Below, in pieces: positions 25,299 to 54,680 of a stretch of 64,000 nucleotides of DNA. Position 1 is the first letter of the stretch. The number at the start of each line of letters is the position of its first letter. The stretch is taken from positions 1-64,000 of the forward strand of contig NW_027590347.1 in assembly GCF_964213995.1 (NCBI RefSeq), in the 5' to 3' direction. The position numbers were made by a program, and so were the translations under genes. Under the pieces are notes generated by a model that saw only the letters and a program-made list of their open reading frames with translations, ran no database searches and was not told the DNA's origin. Source of the DNA: Mustelus asterias (lineage: Eukaryota).

Positions 25299-25924
25299 AT
25301 GTCACACATTTTAATTATTGCCTCATTTCTGTCGAACCCTAAACCAGACACCACGTTGGTTCCTGGTAATAACAGCCTTGTTGTCCCGTGAGTCAACAAA
25401 TTCTGAGAAAAGGATCATCCCGATTCGAAACATTATCTCTGTTCTCCCGCTCACAGGTGTTGTCAGACCGGCCGAAATATTCCAGCATCTTCTCTTTTTG
25501 AGTCAATGTTTAAATGATCAGTGTCTGTTCCATCGGCTCTCTTCGCTCCCAGACATTGAATAACTTCTGTATTTTGTTACAGGGGCAAATGCTGAAGATT
25601 CAATGTTTCAAGATCGATCTGAAATATCGGTTCTGGAAGAACAGAACATAACATTGGACTATAAATACTCGCCAGCTGTTCTTCGAAGATGTTCTGGTAC
25701 ATCCAGTATCCCCGGCAAGCTCCGAGATATTTGATGGAGATATATAGCTCGGGCAATACCGATAAGTCTCCATATTTCCCAGATAGATTCTCGGCTAATT
25801 TACACAAAGGAAACAACACTGCTTTAAATATCGCTTGAACTCTTCTTCCTGACAGCGCCGTGTATTTCTGTGCCACGGAGCACACACAGGTGCAGAGATA
25901 TGGCGAACCCCCCGCATAAAAACC
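25299..25924 (+). pseudogene. TCR V pseudogene related to family C
   Basis: V exon from 25583 (GANAEDSMFQ...): first Cys>Tyr, frameshift before MFWYIQYP, TGA in FR3, DSAVYFCATE, degenerate RSS. Upstream 25170-25300 is homologous to the family C promoter. Confidence 0.88.
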
Positions 25925-26129
25925 CCTGACTGGGAGTTCCAGATAATGATCAGCAGAGGGCGCACTCACACTGATAAACAGACTCAACAATTCAGTCTTC
26001 ACAGAGAGAGTCACCGGATCATGCATAAAATTTCAAATCAAAACACAACACTCAACAAGAACAGCAGACCCGCAGTTGGTTTTTAACGTGCAACCATACT
26101 AAAGATACATTTATGGTTCGTTAACTCAC

Positions 26130-26466
26130 TTTTTAAAAATACTTTTCCAATTCAATCAAATCAAATCCAATTCAGAGTCTCAACAAGTTGAGACATTTCA
26201 GATCCAGGCTGACATGACAGGGCGAGCGACCAAATCACCCTGTCCTGGGCCTGATCTACATGAGCCAAGCTGATTGGAGAAGGGGGAGGTTCCTCCTCCA
26301 AGACTTGAGCTCATTTGCAACTTAGCCAAAAGGCCGAGATGCCGCTTTTAAAAATTGCTTCATATGAAACATATGAAGCTTCAGTGTAACCTAATGACCT
26401 CAACCAAGTGCGGCCGACCATGGGCTGCCGACCATACTACAGTTGATCTTAGCCAAAAGGCCGAGA
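26130..26466 (-). mobile_element. Short retroposon with U2 snRNA-derived head(s), flanked by a 17-bp TSD
   Basis: Minus strand starts tctcggccttttggctaagatcaactgtagtat (U2 5' end); second U2 piece 26339-26321; TSD atggttcgttaactcac at 26113-26129 and 26467-26483. Confidence 0.85.
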
Positions 26467-27599
26467 ATGGTTCGTTAACTCACGCTTAGTCCTTTGACGA
26501 TATTTCCTTTGCAACCCTTTTCCCATCTTCACTCCGTTTCGAGGTCGCTCAGATCAACGTATCTATTTGGCCAGAGTGCTTTGCTGGTTAAGGGACAGGT
26601 TATATAACATATACATTTCACAAGGTTGTCATTGAGTTATTTGAAACAATCCCTGAGAAAATGTACCATCAATGTTCAATCTGATTTTGAATGTCTGTGA
26701 AATCTTTTCTGACACAATTCGCAACCCAGCGCCTCCGCCTCACAATAACCAGACCAGCGACTTCATCCTCACCCCTCTCCCTAACAATATAACGATTTTC
26801 CGAATAAAAGCACTGATTATATCCCAGTTTGGGATGTTTCTGCTCACTGAAAGCCTGGTTTCCACATGCAGGACTAAAACACACTGGGAACACACATAAG
26901 TGAGGTGATGCTATGACATTATAGCAGATTAATGAGAGTGCGGAGTAGAACGAGATTTTTCTTGCTTCAACTTCCCTTTTACAGAGCGGACAGTGACAAT
27001 GTGGGAAGGCAGCAGCTGGGTGTTCTGGGAGTGGGGAGGGGCAATTTCAGAGGCAATCGTGGAATAAACAGATTTAATTTCATTTCCCAATCGTAATTTC
27101 AACCTAAAGTTTAAACACACTCCGATATGATTGATTCGCTTTTGAACATGTATTCCAGATGAGTCATGGAAATTATGTCACTTACTTATTGTCCTCAAAT
27201 GATAAGACAGAACGAGAAATAGTTTTTTTTCTTCAAGTTTCAACTATGATATTACATGGAGTGATTTTGTTTTATCCTGGCGCTCACTATTCCCGATGAG
27301 CTGCACTCACAGGAAGTCTTACACATGCCTGCAGACAATCGGGAGACAAACAACGGCAACAGCGACGTTCAGGCAGCCAAACCTCTCTCCATCTCCAGCT
27401 GGAGAAATTGGACTCTGAAGAGTTGATCAGAATAAGGGCTCAGGTACGGAGTTTATGATGGAAATCAGTCCTACCTTCGCACTTTGCATTTTTATCGGGA
27501 GCTCCTATCTGCTGGATTATAAATTAATGATTGCTTAACGTTGCAAAACCATTGCGCCGAGCGGACAGGCGAAGCCAGAATCCATCTCCTAATTGCTCC

Positions 27600-27709
27600 A
27601 AAAACGAATTCAAATTCAAATTGAATCTAATTCATGGTCCTCGCAAGATATATATACAAGATCCACGCTGACAGGAAAAGGCACCGCACTTGATCTTAGC
27701 CAAAAAGGC
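27600..27709 (-). mobile_element. Second, shorter member of the U2-headed retroposon family
   Basis: gcctttttggctaagatcaagtg (U2) joined to tgtcagcgtggatct...tgaattagattcaatttgaatt, homologous to the 3' tail of 26130-26466. Confidence 0.65.
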
Positions 27710-28001
27710 AGAATCTGGATAGATACAACCACTATGGGCAGCGGTGGTCTCAGAAGCTCAAACACACACCGAGAGGATATCGCATTAACATCGGATCAAA
27801 CTGGCACCCAAATTATTCCAGCAATGACCGAGAAAATTAACTGCAGAATTCGATCAGTCCGGCAGATCAGTCATCAACACAGTCTACAAGTAAAACCGGG
27901 TGCTGTTCAGTTTCTGATCAGTTGTAACTTCCCACAAACACAGGGCTGGATATTCCTTTCAGCTCCGGGGGACATGTTTCTGACCCTCAGACCAGACCCA
28001 C

Positions 28002-29526: not shown

Positions 29527-29685
29527 AGTTTTTGTACAGGGTTTTAGCTGTAATCTAACGCTGTGCCTCACAGCACAGTAATAGACCGCCCCGTCCTCCG
29601 CACTGAGGCCGCTTATGTTGAGGTAACCAGACTTTGTAGACTCGTCAGCAGCCGCCAGATATCGCCCTGAGATCTTATCTTTCTT
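29527..29685 (-). pseudogene. 5'-truncated family A V relic with intact 23-RSS (29527-29565)
   Basis: KKDKISGRYLAAADESTKSGYLNISGLSAEDGAVYYCAVR + CACAGCG-23-ACAAAAACT; 5' half replaced by a minisatellite. Confidence 0.9.
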
Positions 29686-29900
29686 GGGGACAGTGTAGAG
29701 CGAGCTTTGCTCTGTATGTTACCCTGTGCTGTCCCTGTCCTGCGAGTGTTTGATGGAGACAGTGTAGGGGGACCTTTACTCTGTATTGAATCCCGTGCTG
29801 TATTTGTCCTGGGAGTGTTTAATGGGGACAGTGTCGAGGGAGCTATACTCTGTACCTAACCCCGTGCTGTACCTGTCCTGGGAGTGTTTGATGGGGACAG
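29686..29900. repeat. 69-bp minisatellite, about 3 copies
   Basis: Unit starts at 29686, 29755, 29824, 29893 (ggggacagtgtagag...gtcctgggagtgtttgat). Confidence 0.92.
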
Positions 29901-33509: not shown

Positions 33510-34640
33510 AATCACAGAACAGCAGGAGGCCATTCAGCCCATCATGTCTGCCCCGATCCCGGAAGAGCCACCCAGCGAGTCCCATTCTCCAGCCCTGTCT
33601 CCTCAGCCCCCTAAATCAATCACTTTCAAATATGTATCCGCCTCTCTTTTGAATCCTCCTATGGAATCTGCCTCCACCTCTCTCCCAGGCAGCGCATTCC
33701 AAATCCTAACAACTCTCCGAGTAAAGAAGTTTCTCCTCATCTCACTCCCAGCTCCCTTTCTGACCATCTTGAAATTGTGACCCCTTCGTCACTGACACAC
33801 CAACGAGTGGAAACAGAATATCCTTCTTCACCCTGTCAACATTGTTCATCATTCTGAACACCTCGATAAGGTCACCTCTTAATCTTCTCTGCTCCAAGGA
33901 GAATAAGGCCAATTTCTCTCATCTTTCCTTGGATCTAAAATCTCTCATTCCTGGAATCATTCTAGTGAATCTCCTTTGCACTCTCTCTCTCTCTCTCTGC
34001 CTCTCTCGAGGACTTTAACGTCCTTCCTTAAATAAGGTGCCCAGAACTGATCCCAGTGCTCCGAATGTGATCTGTCCAATGATTTGTAGAGGTGTAGCAT
34101 CACTTCCTTGCTTTTATACTCTATGCCTCTCTTTATAAACCCAAGGATCCTATCAGGCTTCTTAACAACTGTTTCATCTTGCCTGGCCACCTTCAGAGAA
34201 TGAATCACTTGAAACCCAAGGCCCATCTGCTCCTGTAGTCCCCTCAACGTTGTACCATTGAGTCTGTATCGTCTCCCCATGTTTCTTCCACCAAAATGCA
34301 TTCCCTCCCATTTCGCTGCATTGAAATTTATCTGCCAGGTGTCTGCCCATTTGGCCAACTTGTCCACGTCCCTCTGAAGTCGCTCAGTGTCATCCTCACA
34401 ATTCACTCTTCTCCCGAGCTCAGCATCATCTGCAAATTTGGAGATTGTGCGTTCAACCCCCGTCGCTGAGCTGTGAATATAAATCAGAAACAGCAAGGGT
34501 CCCAACACTGATCCCTGGGGAACACCACTTTCAACTCGTCTCCAGTCTGAGAAATGCCCATCTCTACCTCCCCTCTGTTTCCTATCTCTTACCAAACTTC
34601 TAATCCATGCTGCCAAGGACTCATCCATCCCTAATATTTC
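33510..34640 (-). mobile_element. CR1-clade LINE RT fragment
   Basis: GVPQGSVLGPLLFLIYI...ISKFADD RT motifs. Confidence 0.93.
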
Positions 34641-50825: not shown

Positions 50826-52494
50826 ATGTTCTGGATTATTCCACTTGAGCTTCGTGTTGCTTGGGTACTTCACGATATCCAAAGGATTTACTACCCACTC
50901 CTCGCTGCAGTTGGTGTAGCTGGTGAGTTAAATTTCACTCTGTTGATTGCACCTGTCCGTGAGACCCAATCAATAATTTTATAATGTGCAAACTTCATGT
51001 TGCATATGTGCTAATGCAATTGGAAAATTTCTCTATCTTCCCAGCAGACATTTTCCCTACTCTTGCCTGGTGGTTGCTCTCTATTTCCCACTCTCCCCCT
51101 TCCCCACTACCAACCCCCTCTCCTCACTCCCACCACACCTTCACCGGCCACTTCCACTATTCCTGCCTTAATATCTACAGGGTCCTGCCTCAGTAAAATA
51201 AAATATATAATTTCCAGTTTTGTGATTTACAGCCAATTCCAAATCAACTTATGCAATATCTTCAGATGCACAGTCTGCAGCACAGCCACAGCAGAGTGAC
51301 CCAGACCAGGAACATTCCGTCCAAACCCATTGGTACCATTGTGTCTCCCAAATACAAATAAAGAGAAGGCAGGGAATTGGAGATCTGCTCTGTTGGTAAA
51401 TTTAGTTTCTTGATACCTCAGTGCGATGCTTTCTTACTGTGAACCCAGTCTCAGCAGAACAGGTGAATCCATGTTTTTCTGAGGCTGGACTCTGTAAAAC
51501 AAAATCCTGCAGCTGTTCCCCAGAAACCTGCCAGATTACTGCTCCTGTTCTCAGTCTGAAATATGAGTTAATTGTCTCTCTCTTCCCTGCAGTGAACTTA
51601 TTGACGATTCTTATCCTGTCTCGAGGAAGGTGTGGACTTTCCAAATGTGTCTCACGTTACCTAATTTCCATGTCAGCGGCGGATCTACTCGTCGTCATCA
51701 TCGACCTCGTATTGAGGCAAATTCCCATCAGTTTCAGAGATCAATTTGTCTTCATGTATCATGTTAAAGTGTGCAATATCCATGCCGTCCTGCTTTACGC
51801 AGTCACTGACTGTTCTGTCTGGTTCACTGTCACTTTTACCTTTGATCGATTCGTGGCCATTACTTGTCAGAAGCTGAAAATAAAATACTGCACTGAGGAA
51901 ACGGCAACTGTGGTTCTAGGAACAGTGAGTGTGGTATTCACTGTAAAAAACACTTTCTGGTACTTTATGTGTGAGAATAGCTATTGGCTTTCCAATACTC
52001 CCTATTTCTGTTCTGTAGATCTTGATGTCTCCTCCTCACCAGCATGGACAGCAGCTGAAAGTCTCCACTATATTTTAACCCCGACTATTCCTTTTTTGAT
52101 GGTTGTGCTGTTCAACGTTTTAACCGTTAAATACATTGTAGTGTTGAGTAAAGTCCGCAGGAGACTTCGGACCCACAAGAATGGGGAAAGTCCAAGTGAC
52201 CCAGAGATAGAGAAAAGAAGAAAATCTATCATCATACTGTTTGCAATATCGGGAAATTTTCTCCTGTTATGGTCAGTGTTCCTCTTCTATTGTTTTTATG
52301 ACCGACTGTACATGTTTAAATTATTTCTGTCGCGTTTACCACATTTTCTTCAGGAATTAGGATTTATGCTCCAACTCCTGAGTTGCTGCACCAACACATG
52401 CATCTATGCAGTGACACAGACACAGTTCAGAGAGGATCTGAAAAATGTGGTGATGTTTCCAGTAACTGGAATTTTGAAATTCATTAAACAGTAA
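50826..52494 (+). CDS. Class A GPCR, GPR139/GPR142-like, two exons (50826-50922, 51593-52494), 332 aa
   Basis: Exon 1 MFWII...QRIYYPLLAAVGVA|gtgagt; acceptor ccctgcag|VNLLTILILSR...; AADLLV (TM2), FTFDRFVAI (DRY-like), LLSCCTNTCIY (TM7); seven hydrophobic segments. Confidence 0.88.
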
Positions 52495-54109
52495 TAAGCT
52501 ATTCTATCACCACAACGTATTTATCTGATGTTTTGCTACAGAAACTCATCGCAATCAGAAACACACTGATGTCGATTTTGCTTTATTCATCCCGATAAAT
52601 CCATGAACAACAATTGTAGAAATTCAAAAGGAAACGACTTCAGATCCAAAGCTGTCTGGATTTGAATCAGTTAAAATCAGCGATTTAACATGTGCTGGAC
52701 ACATTGAGTTCCAGAATAAAATATTCGCCTGTCAAATTCGGGAGGAAGTTACTGACCTTAGCATTTTACATCAACACTCATCCCACAACGAAAATATCTG
52801 CCAGCACCACCCCTACCAGCCTCACGGTACCGGCCCCACCACCCGATCTCTCACATCACACGTCCCCCTGCGCCGCCCCCCCCCCCCCCCCCCCCCCACC
52901 ACCACCCCCAACCCCGTTCGGGAAGTATTCACTATTGTATCTAGTGATGGTGAATTGAAGAAGTGGATGTGAGATTAATGAAGGCTCGTATTGGGGAAGA
53001 GGAAGTGAAGGGAGGGGTGGTGGGCGGTTGCGAGTCATTTGTCGTGTGCTGAGACGACAATGTCCATAAAATATTAGCCCGAAACATCCATTCAGTGGCA
53101 ATCAGAGTCATGTTGCAGCTGCGACGACATTTAATAAAATCCAGTGCCAGCATTCGACAGCGCACTTGCTTCAATTCACTGAGAACTCAAATAACTGCAC
53201 AGCAAATCAGTCCAATGCGCCCCTGAATTTTGCAGTGTGTTATAGGTCAGAGTGACTTAAGGCCTCAAATGTGCCGGAGTGTAATCTTCAAATAAGCAAA
53301 CACATTTTAATATAGATGGAACAGAATACAGGCAGGGTTGTGAAGGGTCTCTGGAACACATTAGAACTCAATAATGGAAAATTCAGAGAAAATTAGATTT
53401 GTGTCCAATTATAATGAAATAATACTTAATAAAATCTGGATTTAAAAAGTAGCCAGCTCTTCCAAAAAATTAAAGTGAATGTAAAGAAATAATTAGCAGT
53501 TAAGAGACACATTTATTCGCGAGTGGATGAATATAAATCAAGTATTAAATTCCCTATCCTTGGGCCAGATTTCCTTGTGGATATTATTGAGAGGGATGCG
53601 GATGCTGTTGCTTTCTGGGGAAGCAAGGTATTAAATTTATTTTGAAAATCACCTCAAAACTGTTTATTTATCTTGAGTCTACAAATGATACAATGCTACC
53701 ATCTGCTGACAACCCACAACTGCTGCAGACGCTGGTCTTTGTGAGTCTCAGAAAAGTTCAGTAACTCGAGACTGCATTTTTGATTTGATTTGATTTATCA
53801 TTGTCACATGTATTAACATACAGTGAAAAGTGTTGTTTCTTGCACACTATCCGAATAAACATATTGTACTTAAAGAAGGAAAGGGGAAAGTACAGCATGT
53901 ATGGCTACGGTCAGAGGTAGGATGGAGAGAAAGATCAACTTTGGTCCATTCAACACTCTGATGGCAACATGGAAGAAGCTGTTCTTAAGTCTGTTAGTAC
54001 GTGGCCTCAGGCTTTTGTATCTTTTTCCCAACAGAAGGTGGAAGAGAGAATGTCGGGATGCATGCGGCCCTTAATTATGCTAGCTGCTTTTCCGCGACTT
54101 GAGTCAGTG

Positions 54110-54680
54110 GGGTTATGCTGCAACTGTACAGGACCTTGGTGAGACCACATTTGGAATATTGTGTGCAGTTCTGGTCACCTCACTATAAGAAGGATGTGGA
54201 AGCGCTGGAAAGAGTGCAGAGGAGATTTACCAGGATGCTGCCTGGTTTGGAGGGTAGGTCTTATGAGGAAAGGTTGAGGGAGCTAGGGCTGTTCTCTCTG
54301 GAGCGGAGGAGGCTGAGGGGAGACTTAATAAAGGTTTATAAAATGATGAAGGGGATAGATAGAGTGAACGTTCAAAGACTATTTCCTCGGGTGGATGGAG
54401 CTATTACAAGGGGGCATAACTATGGGGTTCATGGTGGGAGATACAGGAAGGATGTCAGAGGTAGGTTATTTGTGCAGAGAGTGGTTGGGGTGTGGAATGG
54501 ACTGCCTGCAGGGATAGTGGAGTCAGACACTTTCGGAACATTTAAGCGGTTATTGGATAGGCACATGGAGCACACCAGGATGATAGGGAGTGGGATAGCT
54601 TGATCTTGGTTTCAGATAAAGCTCGGCACAACATCGTGGGCCGAAGGGCCTGTTCTGTGCTGTACTGTTCTATGTTCTAT
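54110..54680 (+). mobile_element. CR1-clade LINE 3' end (partial copy 57117-57425), followed by an HE1 3' piece
   Basis: LYRTLVRPHLEYCVQFWSPHYKKDVEALERVQRRFTRMLPG...; tail tgttctatgttcta. Confidence 0.93.

Follow-up and report, generated by a model that had tools for sequence, protein, structure and literature searches.

A SINEU-like, U2 snRNA-headed retroposon candidate in a T-cell-receptor-like locus of a shark

A non-coding insertion of 337 bp, here termed E1, is flanked by a perfect target-site duplication and carries two pieces of U2 snRNA on the minus strand of a 64-kb stretch of shark DNA, the whole of which was analysed and is referred to as the window. E1 is probably a young copy belonging to an independent, SINEU-like lineage of U2-derived, non-autonomous retroposons of cartilaginous fishes. 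An initial annotation had described a retroposed, non-coding, U2-headed insert of SINEU-like plan in a shark, and this description is borne out by the duplication, the two U2 heads, and the lack of an open reading frame.

Boundaries, parts and predicted folding of E1

The 17-bp direct repeat reported to bracket positions 26130–26466 is exact (17/17). As read on the minus strand, direct-repeat comparison places its copy on the 5' side of E1 at 26467–26483 and the copy on the 3' side at 26113–26129, with the 337 bp of E1 between them. Exact, non-simple 17-mer repeats spaced by 100–1000 bp form 47 merged runs in the 64-kb window, only two of which are located between 13010 and 37978, namely the E1 duplication and the repeat formed by its two heads; the remaining runs lie in tandem or duplicated blocks. 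The 3' flank of E1 consists of the duplication and non-U2 DNA, i.e., E1 was not inserted in U2-like DNA, and comparison of the flanks indicated that this one insertion site is unlike both the L1 consensus and the U2 target. An empty paralogous site was not found in the 64-kb window. From the exact duplication and the near-perfect heads (33 of 34 positions matching for the first) we infer that the insertion occurred recently. No open reading frame of at least 120 amino acids overlaps E1, and the element contains neither an endonuclease nor a reverse transcriptase frame. The segment just past the 3' duplication (26093–26104) agrees with the head-1/body junction (26431–26442) in 11 of 12 positions, probably by chance.

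On the minus strand, E1 starts with head 1 (26434–26466), which comprises U2 nt 7–39 and thereby stem-loop I and the branch-point recognition sequence; U2 nt 6 is provided by the last base of the 17-bp duplication. Alignment to the Rfam U2 consensus extends over nt 6/7–39, nt 31 being the sole mismatch (36.8 bits, which is below the gathering score of 46; E 2e-5), in line with the 33/34 match to U2 nt ~6–39 noted at the outset. The second U2 piece, annotated as nt ~7–25, was likewise recovered: head 2 (26321–26339, minus strand) matches the initial 19 nt of head 1 at every position and represents stem-loop I, U2 nt 7–25, with positions 8–25 of the U2 model aligned. The two heads are 127 nt apart, both start at U2 nt 6/7, and their exact matches to U2 amount to 24 and 19 nt. 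Rfam searches at gathering score yielded no match in the whole window, and the weak matches to SNORD94 and other models were far under their thresholds.

The element follows a two-unit plan, unit 1 ending in T5-A4 and unit 2 in T5-A5, and looks like a dimer. The unit-1 body (26340–26433, minus strand) forms a fold-back with the end of head 1, includes a perfect 10-bp hairpin at 26357–26379, and terminates with T5-A4 (26346–26354) and a 6-nt spacer. The unit-2 middle (26224–26320, minus strand) harbors a 21-bp hairpin (26260–26314) as well as the 5' arm of one of 22 bp (26199–26258). Within this region, 26243–26283 may contain the U2 nt ~38–85 region a second time, in decayed form, the likeness of this segment to the diverged U2 copy E2 (see below) being weak, as 20 of 1500 controls score as well. 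The unit-2 3' module (26140–26223, minus strand) corresponds to diverged U2 nt ~38–110 and shows a stem IIa-like element, a 7-bp stem IIb-like hairpin, and a repeat-expanded linker; a three-way alignment of E1, E2 and U2 indicates that the U-run of the Sm site is shortened or displaced. After a short pentamer-like repeat, the 3' terminus (26130–26139, minus strand) consists of T5 and only five A. The final T5 might be the Sm U-run itself or a new end that arose after loss of this run; the three-way alignment prefers the second possibility. Runs of T5, T4 and T5 occur in 26130–26432, and a further T4 is present in head 1. Searches with box patterns did not reveal a B box in 26130–26432 and found a single A-box-like match, inside head 2. 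No tRNA gene was detected in the 64-kb window.

The fold predicted for E1 has a z score of -5.8, and none of 100 shuffled sequences was as low. For the unit-2 body, in which helices of 21, 22, 7, and 11 pairs are predicted, z was -6.0; the minimum among 156 tiles of the window was -4.9. The end of head 1 including the branch-point recognition sequence, and the pieces resembling U2 38–65, are predicted to be held in long stems. The sense strand is predicted to fold better than the antisense strand, the difference not being significant (63 of 209 tiles exhibited one as large). Since such strand differences are common among the tiles, a fold-back duplication at the level of the DNA would explain the stems as well as selection acting on the RNA.

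Partial U2 ancestry of the E1 body and the neighboring copy E2

BLAST within the window did not identify a second copy with the structure of E1. It detected one relative, 1.1 kb away, in which 27607–27682 is 71% identical over 77 nt to 26149–26223 of the unit-2 3' module; none of 2960 control segments (maximum 40) reached the alignment score of 61. The relative is part of E2 (27519–27718, minus strand), which aligns to positions 1–192 of the Rfam U2 model with 22.5 bits (E 0.011), a score below the gathering score. In this alignment E2 keeps the Sm site and stem III. The linker between stem IIb and the Sm site contains a repeat expansion of ~17 nt, and the branch-point region and stems IIa/IIb are broken. 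The U2 reference set used for comparison comprised 132 loci from metagenome contigs, 114 of which were long enough, and 106 of these were distinct. Its head left out, the body of E2 attained a score of 73 against the best of the 106 sequences, L005, with 86 of 123 aligned positions identical, and 0 of 150 controls scored as high (maximum 58). L005 is presumably a vertebrate-like U2. Because the body alone outscores all 150 controls, E2 is a diverged, whole-length U2 copy. We had also considered E2 as a U2 head with a foreign tail; this idea was dropped, as E2 aligns to the whole U2 model and its body scores above the controls. A target-site duplication was not found around E2, where the search of the flanks gave a single 8-nt repeat.

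For a copy diverged by 30%, E2 is rich in CpG (9 CpG; observed/expected ratio 1.29, compared to 0.46 for the window). Rather than being an old relic, it may have been copied recently from a different U2-derived subfamily.

The comparison with E2 modifies the description of the E1 body as unique sequence. This description does not hold for 26149–26223, a segment homologous to that part of E2 which corresponds to U2 nt ~38–100. The (gattt)n repeat, which had been taken for a tail, matches the expansion in the stem IIb–Sm linker of E2 rather than a LINE tail. In the three-way alignment, 65 columns are free of gaps: all three sequences are equal in 28, E1 and E2 agree against U2 in 18, only E1 differs in 10, only E2 differs in five, and all differ in four. 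About six of the changes common to E1 and E2, as read from the alignment, and one common deletion fall in U2 nt 39–66, where nt 59–66 are the same in 90–106 of the 106 references and nt 39–58 were fixed by the search pattern. Since 18 of the 65 columns agree against U2, the alignment shows the E1 3' module and E2 as descendants of one already diverged U2 derivative.

The U2 origin of the 3' module is recognized through E2, because the module alone is hardly U2-like. Its similarity to the best of the 106 U2 sequences was not significant (69 of 150 controls were as good), that to L005 alone was marginal (58 of 3000 controls), and Rfam gave no U2 match in the module alone. A profile built from the 106 U2 sequences (nt 39 onward) retrieved neither E1 nor E2, nor anything else in the window. 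A U2 origin of the unit-1 body was unsupported, with 62 of 150 and 1187 of 3000 controls scoring as well; this body shows a weak likeness to the 3' end of unit 2 (5 of 1500 controls). Judged from these alignments, E1 is a composite of fresh U2 heads on an old, apparently remodelled U2 derivative.

Occurrence elsewhere and origin of E1

A set of 31 words sampled from E1 was compared to 23 listed runs, 16 of which, carrying 11 organism labels and coming from 10 studies, contained a share of 0.23–0.74 of the words. The cut-off for counting a run was a share of at least 0.2; four rows under 0.2 and three rows with zero words were left out. No RNA run was among those listed, which says nothing for or against expression. 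When one study that is possibly the source of the DNA is disregarded, 12 rows from nine studies with 11 labels remain. Eight of these 12 rows are assemblies of only 33–380 million letters, which is a small part of the multi-gigabase genomes of sharks, and words in such small assemblies are as expected of a repeat, suggesting that E1 is one. Genuine U2 cannot give rise to the words, because both exact U2 matches in E1 are under 31 letters. E1 likely belongs to a many-copy family. One study contributes words under three labels, and two samples of label B both yielded 0.52; the best share is only 0.74. The three rows with zero words, each a large assembly, have their sample or study in common with two word-bearing rows; absence is not proven by them, and they caution against a very high copy number. 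The word shares could also stem from a single orthologous locus or from partial matches.

Should an orthologous locus account for the words found elsewhere, E1 might be a one-off or few-copy chimeric retropseudogene. A LINE enzyme copying RNA from a decayed U2-derived locus would have jumped to U2 RNA as a new template, in the way known for U6/L1 and triple chimeras. Chimeras formed by template switching are described for several LINE clades and comprise tripartite ones as well as ones with internal switches (PMC4476161), and a scenario of this kind is consistent with the window lacking a copy of identical structure and with the absence of a 22-mer of the E1 body from metagenome and viral contigs (0 matches), a weak test given the small amount of shark DNA therein. 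We nevertheless think it unlikely, as the words occur in nine studies beyond the possible source study, mostly in small assemblies, and as two heads that both begin at nt 6/7 and two units that both end in T5-A are too regular for a single accident. In human, moreover, switching is largely restricted to U6/U6atac according to the account in PMC4476161. If E1 turned out to be single-copy, it would merely be an odd U2 chimera.

The origin proposed in the initial annotation was another one: a Keno (Tx1) or Utopia enzyme would have inserted a short sequence at nt 38/39 of a genuine U2 gene; the U2 promoter would have driven its co-transcription, and the same enzyme its mobilization. The underlying statement that the U2 match stops at the Keno/Utopia site, described in PMC4640811 and PMC6136364 as nt 38/39, is correct for head 1; the exact match of head 2 stops at nt 25. 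In the three-way alignment, the U2-like 3' module of unit 2 resumes at ~nt 38–40, and reptile Utopia generates duplications of 20 bp (PMC4640811), which would both fit an origin at this site. Such a U2 master is not supported as a general explanation, as it fits neither head 2 nor E2, which passes through the site without a junction; besides, E1 lies outside U2-like DNA, its heads do not include nt 1–5, and a promoter-linked U2 source was not found. We thus regard this origin as improbable. Still less plausible, in our opinion, is that a functional variant gene for a U2-like small RNA, specific to sharks and kept by selection, gave rise to E1 and E2 as retrocopies, the two then not being members of a selfish family. 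The Sm site and stem III retained by E2, its CpG content, and the closeness of the E1 words between organisms would suit such a gene; the broken branch-point region and stems IIa/IIb of E2, the lack of stems III–IV in E1, the buried or changed branch-point sequence of E1, and the difference between E1 and E2, which are 29% apart and unlike in structure, make it very unlikely.

If E1 is, as we consider probable, a copy from a SINEU-like lineage of cartilaginous fishes, this lineage would have arisen in these fishes from a copy of U2 snRNA, and it is represented by two copies of different structure (E1, E2) in one 64-kb window. The source copy would have been transcribed from an outside promoter, in the U2 locus or in flanking DNA. 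Pol II is the probable polymerase, because the element has internal runs of T4, T5 and T4 and no B box was found in 26130–26432. Reverse transcription would then be primed at the short A end by an APE-type LINE enzyme from the Tx1 or L1 clade, which would also create the 17-bp duplication. Tx1 is slightly favored, because the E1 site is unlike the L1 target consensus 5'-TTTT/A (PMC4476161); a Pfam scan of seven frames of the window gave no partner Tx1/L1 open reading frame. Template switching or tandem insertion may have supplied additional U2 5' pieces, or another U2-headed unit, at the front, and repeated 5' addition as described for SINEU-1 and SINEU-2 would account for fresh heads on an old body. 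Since E1 is young, yet its module is 29% different from E2, a transcribed and replicating intermediate that is older than the insertion would be the simplest link between them. A more far-reaching scenario, which we put forward tentatively and consider rather doubtful, is an old, still active lineage that consists almost wholly of U2 and is independent of crocodilian SINEU. Here a whole-length form (E2) would have led to a dimer (E1), with stem-loop I renewed from real U2, the branch-point region buried in hairpins, and the Sm site and 3' half dropped, so that the RNA escapes the spliceosome.

Relation to known elements and genomic setting

E1 resembles the SINEU-1, -2 and -3 families described by Kojima (2015, PMC4494074) in being short and non-coding with a U2-derived 5' head that does not necessarily start at nt 1. 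SINEU likewise exhibits repeated 5' addition of U2 pieces and dimers, and internal oligo-T, described for SINEU, may be a further common feature (PMC4494074). SINEU heads in general derive from U1 or U2 snRNA, and the bodies of SINEU-2 and -3 are also U2-derived (PMC4494074). Both SINEU and E1 are flanked by target-site duplications, of 10–16 bp in SINEU (PMC4494074) and 17 bp in E1. Mobilization by Tx1 is described for SINEU, and renewal of the heads by template switching or tandem insertion was proposed by Kojima (PMC4494074). In its structure and presumable mode of action E1 is SINEU-like, as the structural features tested are present: a U2 head, a non-coding length of 337 bp (<500), a dimer, and a duplication. 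It differs from SINEU by its heavily diverged U2 3' module, the long fold-back hairpins, and an end near the Sm site in T5-A5. A Mariner target was not seen at the one insertion site of E1. In the account of PMC4494074, SINEU has its target preference in common with Tx1-Mar LINEs. E1 is not assigned to the families SINEU-1, -2 and -3, on account of its non-crocodilian host: SINEU is described from crocodilians only in PMC4494074, and the host of E1 is a cartilaginous fish.

With Keno (Tx1 clade) and Utopia, E1 shares the position U2 nt 38/39, which is the insertion site of these elements; their 3' flank begins at nt 39, corresponding to the end of head 1 (PMC4640811; PMC6136364). Long duplications are a further likeness, to reptile Utopia (PMC4640811). 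In contrast to these elements, E1 has no open reading frame and lies outside U2 genes, and the second of its U2 junctions is off their site. Tailless snRNA retropseudogenes and U/LINE chimeras (PMC5322556; PMC4476161) are like E1 with respect to a 3'-truncated U2, a duplication, and a probable template switch. However, the downstream part of E1 is an old U2 derivative and not a LINE 3' end or mRNA, E1 has a doubled structure, and closely similar sequence is found under many organism labels; ~300 nt separate head 1 from the duplication, unlike in a tailless U2 retropseudogene. The shark SINEs HE1, SacSINE1, and the CmiSINEs are short retroposons of cartilaginous fishes as is E1, but as described in PMC3747384 and PMC5499810 they all have tRNA heads and CR1/L2 partners. 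The terms "snRNA" and "SINEU" have 0 occurrences in PMC5499810, and a U2-headed SINE in sharks or rays was not reported in the literature searched, which excluded Repbase Reports, Dfam, and subscription journals.

Other SINEs are defined by an internal Pol III promoter, which SINEs headed by snRNA do not have, and the transcription of SINEU is an open question (PMC4494074). If E1 represents a young family, SINEs have arisen by this route in a second lineage of vertebrates and thus repeatedly, and young copies with readable 5' ends, targets, and source loci would help to find out how snRNA-headed SINEs are transcribed. The E1/E2 pair suggests steps by which a U2 pseudogene might become a mobile element.

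The window is a T-cell-receptor-like cluster of V-set segments (Pfam), several of which are followed by RSS-like signals; TCR alpha chains are among the solved-structure relatives of one V segment. E1 is situated ~200 bp past a V pseudogene that contains stops, in opposite orientation to it. This pseudogene, together with an RSS-like signal, occupies 25499–25965 (plus strand), and a CTCF-like motif at ~25951 is the sole match of the pattern used in the window. Cassettes of V segments have undergone recent segmental duplication (17280–23894/42287–48924, 98.3% identical; 54367–56710/57112–59463, 99.0% identical). A reverse transcriptase piece (Pfam RVT_1) at 33957–34640 (minus strand), which we take to be of the CR1/L2 type, marks a LINE fragment that was not linked to E1. 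The frame 54103–54603 (plus strand) has no Pfam match, was not linked to E1 either, and presumably is a CR1-type 3' end. Among the V segments, 51406–52494 (plus strand) contains an intact frame for a GPR139-like GPCR of an expanded shark family; all of the 120 homologues listed, out of 2022, for the frame at 51553–52491 are shark proteins, with identities of at most 70% among those listed, which places the host among the cartilaginous fishes. A minisatellite with a 69-bp unit in 3.1 copies, which we assume to be of a type occurring in shark genomes, is located at 29685–29900.
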